A stretch of DNA of 64,000 nucleotides, from positions 773-64,772 of the forward strand of contig CAIMIV010000003.1 of NCBI GenBank assembly GCA_903841185.1, read 5' to 3'. The notes beneath the pieces were generated by a model. That model saw only the letters and a program-made list of their open reading frames with translations. It made no database searches and had not been told where the DNA came from. Both the position numbers and the translations under genes were made by a program. The DNA comes from an uncultured bacterium. Its GTDB lineage: Bacteria; Patescibacteriota; Minisyncoccia; Moranbacterales; UBA2206. This document shows, piece after piece, positions 8,995 through 49,271 of the stretch (the stretch's first letter is position 1; the number at the start of each line of letters is the position of its first letter).

Positions 8995-10173
8995 TTATAA
9001 GTATTTCTTATTATTGAGTTCGTCTGGCAGATAGGCTTGGTCTGCGCTATTTTCAATAGGCGTATATTTATAGCCCTTGCCATAGTCCAAAGCTTTCATC
9101 AGCTTGGTGGGGGCATTGCGCAAATGGAGAGGCACCGGCAAATTGCCGAATTTTTCCACATCTTGTTTAGCTTTGTTATAGACGCTGTAGGCCGTGATGT
9201 CCTTTTTGGATTTGGCCAGATAGATGACGCAGTGAGCCAGGTGGACATTGCATTCCGGGTAGCCGAGCTTGTGGCAGGCGTCAAAGGTGGCGTTGGCCAG
9301 GAGCAGGGCACTGTTATTGGCTAGACCGATGTCTTCGGAAGCGAAACGCACCAGGCGCCGCGCAATAAATAGCGGGTCCTCGCCGCCTTCCACCATCCGC
9401 GCCAGCCAATAGACAGCGGCATCCGGATTGCCGCCGCGCATGGACTTGTGGAGGGCGGAAATGATATTGTAATGTTCCTCACCGGACTTGTCATAGAGCA
9501 GATGCGATTTTTGCAACACCTCATGGATGAGTTCGGGCGTGATGGGGCGCGCTTGGTTGACGCAGGCTTCCAGGGTGTTGAGCGCCATACGCGCGTCACC
9601 ATTAGAGAGATTAGCCAGTAGCTTGATGGTGTCATCGGACAAAACTATTTTTTTGGAGGAGCTTATTTTGGAAACGGCGCGGCGGATAATTTTTTCCAAA
9701 TCAACGGCGGAAAGTTTTTGCAAAACAAAAACCCGGGTGCGGGAAACAAGCGCCGAATTGACTTCGAAACTGGGATTTTCCGTAGTGGCTCCGATGAGAA
9801 TAAGTGTCCCGTCTTCGACATAGGGCAGAAGGGCGTCTTGCTGGGCTTTGTTCCAGCGGTGGATTTCATCAATAAAAAGAATGGTTTTCAATTGCGTGAG
9901 TTGATTTTCTTTGGCTTGGGCAATAATTTCCAAAAGGATTTTTTTGCCGGAGGAGACGGCGCTGATTTTGAGGAAGGCCGAATGGGTGGTGCGAGCAATG
10001 ATATGAGCGAGAGTGGTTTTGCCGGAACCTGGCGGCCCCCACAAAATCATAGATGGCAACTGATCTTCTTGGATAGCGCGAAAAAGATAGGAATTTTTTC
10101 CAACTATTTTTTCTTGGCCAAAAAAATCGCTCAGATTTTCGGGGCGGATAAGTTCGGGGAGAGGTGTTGACAT
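8995..10173 (-). CDS. rarA: Replication-associated recombination protein A (AAA+ ATPase RarA/MgsA)
   Basis: 'ILWGPPGSGKTTLA' Walker A, 'ILFIDEIHRWNKAQQDALLPYVEDG', C-terminal MgsA helical domain. Confidence 0.85.
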   Translation of the reverse strand: MSTPLPELIRPENLSDFFGQEKIVGKNSYLFRAIQEDQLPSMILWGPPGSGKTTLAHIIARTTHSAFLKISAVSSGKKILLEIIAQAKENQLTQLKTILFIDEIHRWNKAQQDALLPYVEDGTLILIGATTENPSFEVNSALVSRTRVFVLQKLSAVDLEKIIRRAVSKISSSKKIVLSDDTIKLLANLSNGDARMALNTLEACVNQARPITPELIHEVLQKSHLLYDKSGEEHYNIISALHKSMRGGNPDAAVYWLARMVEGGEDPLFIARRLVRFASEDIGLANNSALLLANATFDACHKLGYPECNVHLAHCVIYLAKSKKDITAYSVYNKAKQDVEKFGNLPVPLHLRNAPTKLMKALDYGKGYKYTPIENSADQAYLPDELNNKKYL

Positions 10174-14578: not shown

Positions 14579-14585
14579 CAAAGTT

Positions 14586-14616
14586 AAAAAGTTCTAGGTT
14601 TAGCCTAGAACTTTTT
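14586..14616 (+). terminator. Rho-independent terminator after tRNA-Gly(GCC)
   Basis: AAAAAGTTCTAGG-tttag-CCTAGAACTTTTT. Confidence 0.7.
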
Positions 14617-14625
14617 GATTTGCTA

Positions 14626-14667
14626 GCGGGATGGGGAATCGAACGGGTAGGAATGAGACAATCCCGC
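14626..14667 (-). pseudogene. Decayed antisense tRNA-like remnant
   Basis: Minus strand reads GCGGGAT...CCCG-TTCGATT-CCCC-ATCCCGC: paired 7-nt ends and a T-loop but a non-pairing T-stem. The same 20-nt core GGGATGGGGAATCGAACGGG recurs at 46641. Confidence 0.4.
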
Positions 14668-14750
14668 CCAAACGGGATTAGTCGAATGTCGATGAATGTG
14701 AATGAATGAATATTCAGCGCTACCCAGGGCAAGGATCCTCAGCGACGACG

Positions 14751-14770
14751 GAATTCCCCCTACCCGCTCA
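14751..14770 (+). repeat. Direct repeat of the tRNA-Gly 3' end (partial copy R2)
   Basis: GAATTCCCCCTACCCGCTCA equals the last 19 nt of tRNA-Gly(GCC) plus CA. Confidence 0.6.
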
Positions 14771-14876
14771 GAATCTAAAAAGCTCTCCCTCGTGGAAAGT
14801 TTTTTGTATGCTTAGAAGGCATGTTTGAGCTGGATGTGATATAATAAGACTATAAAAATAATAATAGACCCTTCTA

Positions 14877-36764: not shown

Positions 36765-37478
36765 TTATCTCCTTGCTTTTCTTCGTAGTTTGGCTTCTCG
36801 GATTCGACGAGCGACATCATTAGACGTCTCTTCGCTGAATAAATTTTTCACAAAACCAACAACTGGCTTTGCAGCTTCCCCAAGAGTGATGTTTTCTTGG
36901 TTGTTTTTTCCGAAATGGATAATTCTTTCTTCGAGCAAGTCCATTTTGGAATTTTCATCAGGGCACTTTGTTATTCCAAGGAAGATTCCATACCAGAGTT
37001 GGTTAGCGAAAATAAAACGTTCATTTGGGTTTTTTTCATTCGCAGTTTTATCTTCCGCCATGAGAAATACGAGACCTTTGGCTCTATCATAGAGTAGCTT
37101 TAGTCTTTGCGTTTCCTCAGGGCTTTTTCCTGCAAAATCTGGATTGTTCATTTCATAGTGCTTTTTAAGAAAAAGTAATTTATCATCAAGGGATATGCCC
37201 GTTAGGCTAACCAGAGAAGTAAAAAAAACTGATTCATCACCTCTTCCTCTCCCGCCTTTAAGGATCTCAACCAGCTTTTCCTTGACAGCTTCGTGAATAT
37301 CCGGATGGGACATAAGGTTTTTAATAAGACTCATAACTCCCCCTGCGAACACGCCTGTTGCGGCAGCTTCTGCCACCTCTCCTATGATTTTCTTCACAAC
37401 ACCGCTTTTCTTGTCAGTTGCAGGGTTAGCACTCTTATCCTCGTTTTTTCCCGTGGCATTATTCCTTGTATCAGCCAT
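36765..37478 (-). CDS. Hypothetical protein
   Basis: 237 aa, Lys/Arg-rich C-terminus. Its stop lies 4 nt before the next gene's start, so the two are probably co-transcribed. Confidence 0.4.
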   Translation of the reverse strand: MADTRNNATGKNEDKSANPATDKKSGVVKKIIGEVAEAAATGVFAGGVMSLIKNLMSHPDIHEAVKEKLVEILKGGRGRGDESVFFTSLVSLTGISLDDKLLFLKKHYEMNNPDFAGKSPEETQRLKLLYDRAKGLVFLMAEDKTANEKNPNERFIFANQLWYGIFLGITKCPDENSKMDLLEERIIHFGKNNQENITLGEAAKPVVGFVKNLFSEETSNDVARRIREAKLRRKARR

Positions 37479-37759
37479 AATTTTCTCCTTGTGGGTATTT
37501 AATTTTTAAGGTACGAGTCGGTTATCGGCTCGGTACCGGTAGATTCCTGATAACTTATAATACTAGCACATTTTTGGAAGAAAGTCAATGGCAGTGCAGT
37601 TTTTGGCTAATTTGAGGGATGAAATGGGAGTGGGATTTTTGGAATCTTCAAAACAACCAATGGTCAGTGCTGGAGTGGTTATTAAAGCTCGGCTTTTCGA
37701 GTGTGAAAAAAAGTGTTCCTAAAGCCAAGCTTTTTGAGGCCTGGCAAATTGTGCGATTG

Positions 37760-37790
37760 ACAAAAACCGAGATTCTGCTATACTGAAGAT
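37760..37790 (+). promoter_or_regulatory. Sigma70-like promoter upstream of the nusA leader
   Basis: TTGACA - 17 nt - TATACT. A GC hairpin plus T-run (CCGC-gcga-GCGG GCTTTATTTTTT, ~37810..37838) follows within 30 nt. Confidence 0.45.
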
Positions 37791-37844
37791 ACAGTTTTGA
37801 TGAGGTGATGGTCCGCGCGAGCGGGCTTTATTTTTTGAAAACTC

Positions 37845-38027
37845 AGAGCTTGTTCATAATCTCAACGCTAAATTAAAACTAAAAAAAGCTTGCCTGCTAA
37901 AATATCCTAATTTAGGCTGCAAACCGCTTAAAGCTCGTCGGGTTATCTCGATAGCCCTTCTCACTTTTCACGGTTTTCGCTCTAAATTAGAATATTTTAT
38001 CAAGGCATGAGATTACGAGCAAGCTCT
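37845..38027. mobile_element. MITE-like element copy A (19-bp terminal inverted repeats)
   Basis: Left end AGAGCTTGTTCATAATCTC, right end GAGATTACGAGCAAGCTCT. The interior is homologous to copy B (GGCTGCAAA..CTCGTCG..TTTTCACRRTTTTCGCTC.AAATT). Confidence 0.65.
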
Positions 38028-38058
38028 AAATAAGAAATTAAATAAATAACACAACAGT

Positions 38059-39396
38059 ATGGTAAGAAAAAAAACAACCGTTGCCGAAGATACTCAAGCC
38101 AATCGCATGGGGGATTTTGGCAGTGCAATCGCAGCTTTGTGTGAGGAAAAAGGTATCTCTCAAGAGAAAGTCATTGAAACCATCGAAGCGGCTTTAGCGG
38201 CTGCTTATAAAAAAGATTATGGGAAAAAAGGCCAAAACATCAAGGCAGTGTTTGATGAAAAAACCGGTAACAGTAAATTTTTCTTAGTAAAGGAAGTGGT
38301 GGATGAAACCATGCGCGAATTTGTGGAAGAAAAGGAAGAAGGAGAGGAGAATGAAAAAGAAATCAATAAGTCAAAAAAAGTGGAAGAAGTTGTTGTTGTC
38401 TCTGATGAAGAGAAGCTACCCCGCTATAATTTCGAACGAGATTTACTGCTCGCTGAAGCGAAAGCCATCAAGAAAGATGCGCAGTTGGGCGAAATCATTG
38501 AAATTGAATTGGAGCAGCACCAAGACTACGGTCGCGTGGCGGCGCAAACGGCCAAGCAAGTAATCATTCAAAGAATTCGAGAAGCGGAAAGAGATTCGAT
38601 GTTTGAGGAGTATAAAAACAGAGAAGGCGAAATCATTGCCGGCATCGTGCAACGCATTGAGGGTCGCAATGTCTTCATTGACTTGGGAAAATCAGTAGGC
38701 ATTCTTTTTCCCTCTGAACAAGTGCAACGAGAAAATTATCGCATCGGACAACGCTTGAAAGTCTATTTAGCCAAAGTGGAAGAGGGTTCCAAAGGCCCAG
38801 GCATCACCTTGAGTCGCATTCACGCTGAGATGGTGCGCAAGCTGTTTGAATTGGAAGTGCCAGAGATTTTTGCCGGCACGGTGGAAATCAAATCGATTGC
38901 TCGAGAAGCGGGGGACCGCACCAAGATGGCGGTATTTTCAGCGGAGCCCGGTATTGATCCAATCGGTTCTTGCGTCGGACAAAAAGGCACCCGCGTGCAA
39001 GCTATTATTGATGAATTGGGAGGGGAAAAAATTGATATTATTTTATGGAATGAAGATGTGGCAAAATTCATCGGTGCAGCGCTGGCTCCGGCCAAAGTGC
39101 TGAAAGTGGAGATTCGCGAAGAGAGCAAGGAGGCTACTGTTTCCGTGCCGGAAGACCAGTTGTCTTTGGCGATTGGCAAGAGAGGGCAGAATGTGCGCTT
39201 GGCAGCCAAGCTAACCGGTTGGAAGATTGATATTGTGGGAGTCAAACCTGTTGCAGAAGCTCCGCTTGAAAATGAAAAAGAAAATGAGAAAGAAGAATTG
39301 GTAATTGTGGAGGTGGAAACGGAAGTTAAAAAGAAAAAAGCCGCTCCTGTTAAGAAAACAAAAAAGGTTGCCGAAGAAGTTCCGAGTGAAGAATAG
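38059..39396 (+). CDS. nusA: Transcription termination/antitermination factor NusA
   Basis: S1 domain 'GEIIAGIVQRIEGRNVFIDLG', two KH domains '...GIDPIGSCVGQKGTRVQAI...', 'LAIGKRGQNVRLAAKLTGWKIDI'. KE-rich C-terminal tail. Confidence 0.85.
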   Translation: MVRKKTTVAEDTQANRMGDFGSAIAALCEEKGISQEKVIETIEAALAAAYKKDYGKKGQNIKAVFDEKTGNSKFFLVKEVVDETMREFVEEKEEGEENEKEINKSKKVEEVVVVSDEEKLPRYNFERDLLLAEAKAIKKDAQLGEIIEIELEQHQDYGRVAAQTAKQVIIQRIREAERDSMFEEYKNREGEIIAGIVQRIEGRNVFIDLGKSVGILFPSEQVQRENYRIGQRLKVYLAKVEEGSKGPGITLSRIHAEMVRKLFELEVPEIFAGTVEIKSIAREAGDRTKMAVFSAEPGIDPIGSCVGQKGTRVQAIIDELGGEKIDIILWNEDVAKFIGAALAPAKVLKVEIREESKEATVSVPEDQLSLAIGKRGQNVRLAAKLTGWKIDIVGVKPVAEAPLENEKENEKEELVIVEVETEVKKKKAAPVKKTKKVAEEVPSEE

Positions 39397-46590: not shown

Positions 46591-46596
46591 TCAAAA

Positions 46597-46628
46597 TTTA
46601 AAAATCCCTAGGTTTATCCTAGGGATTT
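46597..46628 (+). terminator. Rho-independent terminator after tRNA-Gly(TCC)
   Basis: AAAAATCCCTAGG-tttat-CCTAGGGATTTTT. Same architecture as the terminator at 14586. Confidence 0.7.
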
Positions 46629-46640
46629 TTATTTTATTAG

Positions 46641-46660
46641 AGGGATGGGGAATCGAACGG
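46641..46660 (-). pseudogene. Decayed antisense tRNA-like remnant (paralog of 14626..14667)
   Basis: GGGATGGGGAATCGAACGGG is identical to the core at 14631. No intact acceptor partner. Confidence 0.35.
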
Positions 46661-46751
46661 GCCACGTCGCTCGCGAGTAATGCCAAGTCCTCGCTTGAGT
46701 TTATGGATAAATTACGTTAGAATAGTAAAATAAATAAGGAATATTTTTCAC

Positions 46752-47262: not shown

Positions 47263-48417
47263 ATGCAAAAGCTCAATCGGTTTTTAATAGTCACCGTAGC
47301 TATGGTACTTATGTTTGGCTTAACTGAATCAGTTAAGGCTGCAACTCAGGTACCTCTTTTGACTGCAGGTAACTTTGCTGTTCTGGGTGGTTCCACAGTT
47401 ACCAACACTGGCTCGAGTGTGTTAACCGGCGATTTGGGTGTATCAGCCGGCTCTGCAATTACGGGTTTTCCACCAGGCACAACTAGTGGGACAACACATT
47501 CAAATGACGCAGTAGCAATTCAGGCTCAAGTTGATTTAACAGCGGCTTATATCAATGCTAGTGGCCAAGCATGTGATCACAATTTGACTGGACAAGATTT
47601 GGGAGGAAAAATTCTTACGCCGGGTGTCTATTGTTTTGATTCTTCCGCACAATTAACCGGAACATTAACACTTGATGGCGGGGGAGATCTTAATGCTGTT
47701 TTTATTTTTAAAATGGGCTCTACTCTCACCACAGCTTCGGGCAGTAAAGTTAGTTTGATTAATAGCGCTCAGTCTTGTCATGTCTTTTGGCAAGTTGGCA
47801 GCTCAGCAACACTGGGAACGACTACAAAATTCAAGGGAAATATTCTAGCTTTGACATCTATTACATTGAATACAGGTGCAACTATAAATAACGGTAGAGC
47901 GTTAGCGCGAAACGGTGCTGTTACATTGGATTCAAATACAATTACCAAGTCAACCTGTGCAACCTCTTCAGACGAGTTGACGAATGGATCTGTGAACGAA
48001 ACTGAAGTTACGAGCTCTGATATTAAAGTTAAAAAAACAGCCAGTGATTATAAATTAAATTCTGGGCCAAAGAAAGTCACTTTCACCTATAAGGTTACTA
48101 ATGAAGGGGATGTTGCGTTGAGTGACATCTCAGTCAAAGACGATAAATGTGATGACGTAAAATATGATTCTGGTGATAGTAATAATGATAATCTTCTAGA
48201 TGTAACTGAAGAATGGAAATATGAGTGTACTAAAAAAGTTAAGAAAACTGAGACTAATACTGTCACTGCCAAAGGAACGGCTAATGGAGAGAGAATAAAA
48301 GATACTGATACAGCTAAGGTTACCGTTTCAACTCCTGGTCTCCCTAACGCGGGATCTAATCCTGATGAAGCGGATAGCAGCTTGTGGATGCAGATAATGA
48401 GCTGGTTCTCATTCTAA
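47263..48417 (+). CDS. DUF3494 (ice-binding-like) family secreted protein with LPNAG sorting-like motif
   Basis: 'LTAGNFAVLGGSTVTNTGSSVLTGDLGVSAGSAITGFPPGTT' is the characteristic DUF3494 N-terminal box. C-terminal 'LPNAGSNPDEADSSLWMQIMSWFSF'. Confidence 0.55.
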   Translation: MQKLNRFLIVTVAMVLMFGLTESVKAATQVPLLTAGNFAVLGGSTVTNTGSSVLTGDLGVSAGSAITGFPPGTTSGTTHSNDAVAIQAQVDLTAAYINASGQACDHNLTGQDLGGKILTPGVYCFDSSAQLTGTLTLDGGGDLNAVFIFKMGSTLTTASGSKVSLINSAQSCHVFWQVGSSATLGTTTKFKGNILALTSITLNTGATINNGRALARNGAVTLDSNTITKSTCATSSDELTNGSVNETEVTSSDIKVKKTASDYKLNSGPKKVTFTYKVTNEGDVALSDISVKDDKCDDVKYDSGDSNNDNLLDVTEEWKYECTKKVKKTETNTVTAKGTANGERIKDTDTAKVTVSTPGLPNAGSNPDEADSSLWMQIMSWFSF

Positions 48418-48423
48418 AGGGTT

Positions 48424-48583
48424 AGAGCCTGTTCATAATCTCCGTATTCTGCTGCGAAATTGAAATTCCGGCTGCAAATTGTTCAAAACTCGTCGAAATA
48501 TCCAGATATTCCTCCTCATTTTTCACAATTTTCGCTCGAAATTACAATCTCTCGCGACGAAAGAGAGATTATGAACAGGCTCT
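48424..48583. mobile_element. MITE-like element copy B
   Basis: Left end AGAGCCTGTTCATAATCTC, right end GAGATTATGAACAGGCTCT. Internal hairpin ATCTCTC-gcgacgaa-GAGAGAT. Confidence 0.65.
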
Positions 48584-48656
48584 TAGTGAAAATATCCCCT
48601 GTCGATTAAAAGTCAGGAAAGTCAAACCAGCATTGGTTTGACTTTTCCATTTATAT

Positions 48657-49271
48657 ATGAAGATTTTAAAAAGAATATCGCTCCGAATACTACTAATAGC
48701 CATCCTTGGTGGAGCAATATTTGTGCTGGCACTGATGGTTTATTTTAATTTTAAACAGCCAGTGCAAAATATTGCGGAGCCGCCGGCAGATACCGCTAGT
48801 TTGGTTGATAAGGAAGTGGAAAATATCAATTTGCCGGTGCGGCTCAAGATTCCCGGGATTGGGGTGGATGCTGCCATTGAGTCGCTAGGACTTACGGCTG
48901 CCGGATCGATGGACACGCCGAAAGGCCCGGACAATGTGGCTTGGTATGCGCTCGGAACTCGCCCTGGAGAGCAAGGTAGTGCGGTTATCGCAGGGCATTA
49001 TGGAAAATGGAAAAACGGGCAGGGGTCAGTATTTGATGACCTGCATAAATTAAATAAAGGCGATAAATTGTATATTGAGGATGATAAAGGAATGATAATT
49101 ACCTTTGTGGTGCGCGAAAGCCGCAATTATGACCCAAACGCGGACGCCATAGAGGTATTTAGCTCAGACGACGAGCGGGCTCATCTCAATTTGATTACCT
49201 GTGAAGGAATTTGGAATAAAGCCGAAAAGAGTTTTTCTCAGCGGTTAGTGATATTTGCGGATAAAGAATGA
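48657..49271 (+). CDS. Sortase-family transpeptidase
   Basis: N-terminal TM, catalytic 'VIAGHYG' His and 'LNLITCEG' TLxTC Cys box, Arg downstream. Confidence 0.65.
   Translation: MKILKRISLRILLIAILGGAIFVLALMVYFNFKQPVQNIAEPPADTASLVDKEVENINLPVRLKIPGIGVDAAIESLGLTAAGSMDTPKGPDNVAWYALGTRPGEQGSAVIAGHYGKWKNGQGSVFDDLHKLNKGDKLYIEDDKGMIITFVVRESRNYDPNADAIEVFSSDDERAHLNLITCEGIWNKAEKSFSQRLVIFADKE

Follow-up and report, generated by a model that had tools for sequence, protein, structure and literature searches.

A repeat in the nusA leader and a related copy further downstream

The window, by which we mean the whole stretch of DNA that was analysed (64,000 nucleotides, 64 kb), lies on the 80-kb scaffold BUCK21-1_SAMEA6872943_METAG-scaffold_114 in ENA, 72 kb of which was covered. 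Homologues of the NusA protein encoded in the window are labelled Candidatus Moranbacteria or Parcubacteria, which places the genome in the CPR/Patescibacteria. Two related repeats, copy A and copy B, were found: A in the leader of nusA, and B flanked by genes for a surface protein and a sortase. The features of the two loci are as follows.

36765-37478, minus strand: divergently oriented gene on the other side of copy A
37757..37784, plus strand: sigma-70-like promoter, TTGACA-16-(TG)-TATACT (11/12 matches), outside the repeat and conserved in four relatives (L126, L127, L128, L133)
37810..37837, plus strand: leader hairpin GGTCCGC-GCGA-GCGGGC followed by a T-run, terminator- or attenuator-like, directly upstream of A and present in the same four relatives
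37843..37845: putative left target-site duplication of A, TCA (from the sequence and the TNA rule of 68 family members)
37846..38026, plus strand: copy A, 181 bp, A-type subfamily, very probably a non-autonomous IS5-type MITE (from TIR matches, profile, fold and empty sites)
37846..37863, plus strand: left terminal inverted repeat (TIR) of A, GAGCTTGTTCATAATCTC (from the sequence)
37915..37980, plus strand: hairpin core of A, GGCTGCAAA ... CTCGTC / apical stem / CTTCTC ... TTTTCGC (from recurrence and covariation)
38009..38026, minus strand: right TIR of A, reading GAGCTTGCTCGTAATCTC on the minus strand, with two changes relative to the left arm
38027..38029: putative right target-site duplication of A, TAA, differing from the left one in its middle base
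38059..39396, plus strand: nusA, 445 aa, starting 32 nt downstream of A (NusA_N, S1 and KH domains; homologues named NusA)
47263-48417: surface-protein gene, 384 aa (Ice_binding/CLIPPER), with its stop codon 7 nt before B
48422..48424: left target-site duplication of B, TTA, where relatives have a single TCA
48425..48582, plus strand: copy B, 158 bp, B-type subfamily, very probably a MITE, with perfect 18-bp TIRs
48583..48585: right target-site duplication of B, TTA
48616-48647: bidirectional terminator-like hairpin with a 14-bp stem, conserved in relatives whose site is empty (L257, L258)
48657-49271: sortase gene, downstream of B and the hairpin

The promoter hexamers are TTGACA (37757-62) and TATACT (37779-84), the latter with an extended TG (TG-n-TATACT). 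The original prediction, of a MITE-like element in the nusA leader, was right about the placement of A, which has the conserved promoter and hairpin upstream and the ATG downstream. It had given a promoter spacing of 17, which measures 16, and had put promoter, GC hairpin and T-run at 37760..37838; both features are present, but the promoter starts at 37757 and the hairpin spans 37810-37837.

Arms, boundaries and folding of the two copies

The 19-mer AGAGCTTGTTCATAATCTC occurs at 37845-37863 and, as an imperfect reverse complement with two mismatches, at 38009-38027. A second pair, with perfect arms, occupies 48424-48442 and 48565-48583. At three or fewer mismatches, the 64 kb contain no match to the arms beyond these four, where 0.03 would be expected. 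The arms thus lie where they had been predicted, but their outermost A and T are part of a 3-bp target duplication, so that the TIR is 18 bp rather than 19 bp long and the true elements extend over 37846-38026 and 48425-48582. The 18-bp TIRs of both copies match GAGCCTGTTCATAATCTC and are complementary at 16/18 positions in A and 18/18 in B.

The claim that the two arms flank an AT-rich interior homologous to a copy at 48424 was confirmed, as the interiors of A and B share 79% column identity with a single 24-nt indel. One internal block of 25 nt is found in the window in A and B only (0 expected), and an nhmmer profile made from related copies detects A with an E value of 1.6e-42. With this profile, neither the window nor another 8.6 kb of the scaffold yields a third copy; a total of two copies in this genome, for the 72 kb of scaffold covered, counts against reading them as MITEs. 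A contains no ORF that reaches 40 aa. A small reverse-strand ORF in the core was considered, because A and B share by eye the frame xRRxIxIxRRxL..LQP, and was rejected since the frame differs in the Saccharibacteria copies and a ribosome-binding site is absent. An integron attC site was rejected as well: by eye the ends do not resemble core sites of the form RYYYAAC / GTTRRRY, and housekeeping genes make up the context.

When folded whole, A is predicted to form one long imperfect hairpin (-66.5 kcal/mol, z -8.5), as is B (-49.4 kcal/mol, z -5.9). The inverted repeats had been expected to form a long stem; the arms do pair in the prediction, but pairing spans the entire element and not the arms alone. 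At the gathering score, Rfam 15 contains no family for the elements, and extending the search to E values of 10 gave chance matches to miRNA models only.

Target-site duplications and distribution of the ends

Scanning one genome per species with the 19-mer returned at least 116 stretches, where about 9 are expected by chance. Hosts among the matches listed include Pseudomonas oryzihabitans and relatives, Mycoavidus, Rickettsiales, Lampropedia, Ruminococcus, Saccharibacteria, Moraniibacteriota and other Patescibacteria. Pairing of the arms yielded, among these matches, about 70 short hairpin elements of 47-308 bp in many phyla; one 18-bp end sequence is therefore common to elements from Pseudomonas to Saccharibacteria. 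Together with at least 120 metagenome stretches that carry the core (see below), these matches show that copies abound elsewhere, the opposite of one outcome that had been said to weaken a mobile-element reading.

With GAG taken as the first bases of the element, direct repeats of 3 bp flank it. Among the matches listed, the 3-bp flanks are identical in 40 of 68 distinct elements (TAA in 20, TTA in 17 and TCA in 3), and TNA is present on both sides in 53 of the 68; with the right flank shifted by 1 or 2 nt as a control, identical flanks fell to 0/68. The base before the duplication is C in 46/68 and the base after it is G in 50/68, which points to C-TNA-G as the target. The duplicated unit is thus 3 bp with a variable middle base (TAA, TTA, TCA) and not TA as in elements of the Correia or RUP type. 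Target-site duplications, which the original prediction had proposed to look for, are accordingly present in the family and at B (TTA/TTA). At A the duplication is imperfect (TCA/TAA, one mismatch), and this counts against a MITE.

Two further groups of 19-mer matches were set aside. Four matches in viral contigs are single arms within coding sequence and were attributed to chance, and the ORFs beside single-arm matches in genome contigs are all housekeeping genes (Der, S1, HemB, SOD, ClpX), with no transposase among them. Many of the apparent single arms are elements divided by 8-kb locus blocks or by contig ends.

Orthologous sites that lack the elements

The site of A is empty in the four relatives that conserve the promoter, whose NusA proteins are 93% (L126), 87% (L127), 82% (L128) and 79% (L133) identical to that of the window. 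They retain the TTGACA...TATACT promoter, the stretch from CAGTTTGATGA to TGGTCCGCGAGAGCGGGC and the T-run, and have neither the element nor any TIR-like sequence; the distance from the promoter/hairpin module to the nusA ATG is merely 45-70 nt. Four other samples yielded contigs of this species in which A is present with an identical sequence. In two other assemblies of this species, short-read contigs end inside A (L002 1-75 and L005 1-110).

The site of B is likewise empty in two relatives (L257 and L258) that have the same gene pair, with sortases 83-86% identical to that of the window. Their spacer of 78 nt equals the window's 239 nt minus (158 + 3), and it reads GGGG-TCA-GTGAA where the window reads AGGG-TTA-[B]-TTA-GTGAA. 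Since the hairpin at 48616-48647 is 3' of B, B sits between the stop codon of the surface-protein gene and that gene's own terminator. Because the orthologous sites of relatives are empty, A and B are insertions, and the idea that the flanking TNA was a feature of the site before insertion rather than a duplication is disfavoured. The insertion of A before nusA is recent and an event of an ordinary kind.

Both types of copy also occur at unrelated loci in other CPR genomes: near-identical B-type copies in L033, L107/L135 and L218, and A-type copies in L044, L184 and L138. The copy in L044, a Moraniibacteriota MAG, is about 88% identical to A. B-type sequence almost identical to the CPR copies was also seen at L050 2380-2426 and L107 24-181, in a MAG labelled Bdellovibrionales (CAZMNQ01). 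L107 is the same locus as the JGI contig L135, so that either a mis-binned CPR contig or a recent transfer is indicated.

These comparisons bear on whether A could be not mobile at all but a native cis-regulatory part of this leader, serving for instance NusA autoregulation. Its position between the promoter/terminator module and nusA and its very stable predicted structure would suit such a role. The element is missing, however, from the orthologous leaders of relatives that keep both promoter and hairpin; the same element lies between surface-protein and sortase genes and in many unrelated contexts, in both orientations; and its borders are transposon ends with target duplications. We regard a native regulator as extremely improbable. 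For annotation, this means that the big hairpin before nusA is very probably a transposon scar rather than a conserved regulator; what is conserved in the leader is the promoter/terminator module upstream.

Transposase genes with matching ends

A plasmid search with the duplication plus TIR as the query led to Xanthomonas hortorum pICMP7383.2, at a gene annotated as an IS5-family transposase, and a complete IS was delimited there:

L129 2006-2851 (NZ_CP018733.1 58154-58999): complete IS, 846 bp, with a TTA/TTA duplication

Its ends are GAGCCTGTTCAAAGTCT / AGACTTTGAACAGGTTC, and the pattern that they share with the ends of A and B is GAGCCTGTTCA.A.TCT, a match of 15/17. The IS codes for ORFA and ORFB, joined by a frameshift at an A7 slippery run, and the fused protein scores 252 bits on the NCBIfam model NF033580 'transpos_IS5_3' (cutoff 110), with matches to DUF4096 and DDE_Tnp_1. 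Short, frameshifted, TNA-duplicating IS5 elements of this kind would probably belong to the IS427, IS1031 and ISL2-like subgroups of ISfinder.

A tblastn search of all collected loci with the Xanthomonas transposase uncovered a second case in the Patescibacteria MAG LacPavin_0920_SED1_MAG_39_9. Five of its contigs (L026, L037, L072, L111, L125) end 25-140 bp inside an element, and these ends begin with the exact 18-mer after TNA. Three of them reach about 137-140 bp inside: two code for a transposase C-terminus (78% identity over 42 aa), and the third has, after about 95 nt, the N-terminus MSTKKRYPCDISREQF, the Xanthomonas counterpart of which is MRARYPSDISREQFEQI. The remaining two, of 25 and 40 bp, each match one of these two ends. 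The exact TIR together with the transposase termini indicates that an autonomous IS5-family element with ends identical to those of A and B exists in CPR. The transposase-bearing parent called for by the original prediction has thus been found as a type, in the form of the Xanthomonas IS and the Patescibacteria IS ends. Assembly breakpoints in CPR MAGs were seen both at MITE A and at full-length IS copies.

Several observations weigh on the other side. There is no transposase gene in the 64-kb window (tblastn) or in the 72 kb of scaffold, so that an IS5 partner within this genome, which is incomplete, is putative; nor is there one in the core-carrying metagenome loci among the matches listed. 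The MITE interior and the Patescibacteria IS ends have only the TIR plus 1 nt in common, which likewise speaks against a MITE; as the interior is unrelated to the IS ends, the element is no simple deletion derivative.

Taken with the ends, the duplications, the small size, the lack of coding capacity and the empty sites, which bear out the proposal of a MITE-like element, the sequence evidence makes it highly probable that A and B are MITE copies mobilised in trans by an IS5-family DDE transposase, with A inserted in the nusA leader. In the mechanism we propose, the transposase would recognise the 18-bp ends GAGCCTGTTCATAATCTC of the elements, which themselves have no coding capacity, and would insert them at C-TNA-G, duplicating TNA. 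A would have inserted only in the lineage of this Candidatus Moranbacteria species, into the spacer between the promoter/terminator module and nusA, and B 7 nt past the surface-protein stop codon, ahead of both the terminator-like hairpin of that gene and the gene for the sortase. The two TIR mismatches and the mismatched TCA/TAA of A suggest that A is older than B and probably immobile, while B looks intact. On this evidence, the tiny CPR/Patescibacteria genomes would contain IS5-type MITEs that have been active recently.

Comparison with known elements

The short frameshifted IS5-family IS (NF033580) resemble A and B in their TNA duplication and in their matching ends, which are exact in the Patescibacteria case. 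They differ in that A and B are 158-181 bp long and non-coding, with an interior that is unrelated beyond the TIR. Tourist MITEs of PIF-Harbinger elements are, like A and B, small, rich in AT and able to fold back; they too have short TIRs, and they duplicate 3 bp, T(A/T)A. PIF-Harbinger transposases are related to those of IS5, and elements of both kinds make 3-bp duplications (PMC4122938, PMC2213677). Tourist MITEs differ from A and B in being eukaryotic and PIF/Harbinger-mobilised, and have no sequence relation to the interior of A and B.

Among bacteria, the Correia elements of Neisseria, RUP of Streptococcus pneumoniae and ERIC/IRU of enterobacteria are intergenic repeats of 100-190 bp that form long imperfect hairpins. 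They are often located within transcription units next to genes, where they can change how the mRNA is processed or contribute promoters; in the case of Correia and RUP, TA is duplicated and the associated transposases are of other families. A and B resemble these repeats as intergenic hairpins inside transcription units, but there is no evident sequence similarity, the duplication and transposase family differ, and regulatory effects are documented for Correia, RUP and ERIC only. In the searchable literature we found no description of this TIR or of MITEs in CPR, which does not prove that there is none.

A hairpin core shared by elements with different ends

A common interior is found in 16 canonical-TIR copies, which come from Moranbacteria, Parcubacteria, Saccharibacteria and an unclassified CPR MAG; compensatory changes occur at 14 of its 43 consensus pairs. 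A metagenome scan with the interior pattern alone, GGCTGCAAA-N6-AAA-N28-40-TTT-N6-TTTTCGC, gave at least 120 stretches, a few of which are unrelated chance matches. Among the matches listed, the canonical TIR flanks 21 of 121 cores. Most of the other cores have long inverted ends of a different sequence, for example GAGCTCATCTCAAAAATAAT, GAGCCTATCTCAAAAATAA, AGACCTGTTGCTTAATAAG, GAGACCTCTGCGAAAGTC, AGTATCTATCTCAAATCTCA, GAGCCTGCTGCAAATCTC, GAGCCTGTCTAAAAAGTCC and GGGACTATCGCCGAATACC, and at least eight TIR classes occur in CPR metagenomes. CPR genomes thus hold a large family of hairpin repeats, at the sites of which short-read assemblies break.

There are at least two ways to view this core: as filler between mobile ends, or as functional in itself. 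In the latter case efficient mobilisation might depend on it as a structure in DNA or RNA, or it could be a structured RNA captured by different transposon ends; it might bring the two ends together, or bind a host or transposase factor via its CTGCAAA / TTTTCGC motifs. The association of one core with so many TIR classes favours a function, as do the compensatory changes, which rise to 32 of the 43 consensus pairs in an alignment of 81 elements among the matches listed. In the same alignment the internal loop CTCGTC opposite CCTCCTC and the asymmetric, mismatched blocks GGCTGCAAA / TTTTCGC are constant. Such covariation and loop conservation exceed what would be expected of purely neutral filler and count against a plain MITE. 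Also in favour is L138 9133-9314 (= L146), an element with an interior 90% identical to that of A and with GAGCCTGCTGCAAATCTC as both TIR arms, so that its arms carry the same 4-5 substitutions in concert relative to A. Finally, the canonical TIR also encloses unrelated interiors in other phyla (Pseudomonas, Mycoavidus, Rickettsiales and others), most of which still fold as hairpins far better than shuffled sequence (z -1 to -11 with the TIRs fixed).

Several of these points are weaker than they appear. The set was gathered with the core pattern, so that the conservation of the core is partly circular, and in a foldback element covariation between the arms could arise by arm-to-arm copying, without selection. 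With its TIRs fixed, the interior of B adds almost no folding energy (z -0.1), and the lack of an Rfam family also argues against a functional core. As to orientation, cores between tandem genes are co-directional in 18 cases and antisense in 15 among the matches listed (n=33, p = 0.73). A strand-specific RNA function, for which an early count of 5/6 co-directional cores had been a hint, was therefore rejected. Random orientation with respect to genes argues against a sense-RNA function for the host, and it fits a role at the level of DNA or transposition, arm-to-arm copying, or common descent with turnover of the TIRs.

On balance we think it rather unlikely that the core is functional. Its most specific form, a chassis exploited by several IS5-like transposase lineages in CPR, would make the core and not the TIR the heritable unit of the superfamily, with a role of its own, and we consider that form equally doubtful. 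The chassis would consist of two CTGCAAA motifs in one arm, two TTTTCGC motifs in the other, the unpaired CTCGTC / CCTCCTC loop and the covarying apical stem; the core would persist while the TIRs are exchanged or change jointly on the two arms. If functional, the core could be used to study how MITEs are recognised and kept, and the CPR-wide core family is the sole part of this analysis that might repay further work.

Predicted consequences for nusA

The MITE reading of A leaves the question of what the insertion does to nusA. By eye, no second promoter is seen before the nusA ATG in the 45-70 nt of the relatives; with a terminator-like hairpin in the leader, expression of nusA would then need read-through of that hairpin. 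Because the conserved promoter and hairpin are upstream of A, read-through transcripts must in this genome cross A, which is thus probably part of the transcribed nusA 5' UTR and would form there a hairpin of about -66 kcal/mol. The original prediction had proposed a fold of the nusA leader as a check. For 37792-38075 the leader hairpin and the MITE hairpin are predicted as separate domains (-88.3 kcal/mol, z -7.7), that of the MITE being independent, and the final 48 nt, AUG included, are unpaired. Since the start-codon region is unpaired in the predicted fold, the effect of A on nusA would be mostly neutral or mild, and the most likely consequence is either none or a mild shift in leader stability or processing.

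A stronger effect would follow if the host had taken over A, either as an outward promoter for nusA or as an RNase III or stability element that alters nusA expression, as for Correia and ERIC. Promoter-like hexamers do occur in A (TTTTCA-17-TAGAAT, 37965-37993) and at the equivalent position in B (48520-48548), in both cases facing the downstream gene, and as A follows the terminator-like hairpin, a new promoter there would bypass the attenuator. Long perfect stems are the kind of substrate that RNase III cuts, and there is one at the base of the element. The hexamers, however, match at 9/12 positions only and lie in AT-rich sequence; the scan of the region gave 4 sites, where chance alone would give 1.3. 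The -10-like hexamer varies across the family (e.g. TTCAAT, TAGAAA, TATACG), and for this lack of conservation we rejected a promoter borne by the MITE. Insertions show no orientation preference, and all relatives do without the element. Use of A by the host is, in our judgement, very unlikely.

The promoter/hairpin module upstream of A was also seen in the relatives, at L126 385-465, L127 70-150, L128 2855-2935 and L133 about 9865-9940. It consists of a promoter TTGACA-16/17-TATACT/TATAAT and, within about 25 nt, the hairpin GGTCCGC-GNGA-GCGGGC with a T-run. It precedes nusA in five Moranbacteria genomes and has no match in Rfam. The conserved module resembles an attenuator and is a candidate site for NusA autoregulation.

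Repeats next to tRNA-Gly genes

A separate small repeat was noticed elsewhere in the window, at 14580-14790 and 46593-46665. At each place a tRNA-Gly gene is followed by a hairpin terminator and then by a shared 20-nt sequence, GGGATGGGGAATCGAACGGG, which is the reverse complement of the 3' half of the tRNA T-arm/acceptor. A third copy of the tRNA-Gly 3' end is present at 14753-14786, where neither ARAGORN nor Rfam identifies a gene. These repeats associated with tRNA-Gly may be tRNA fragments or att-like scars.
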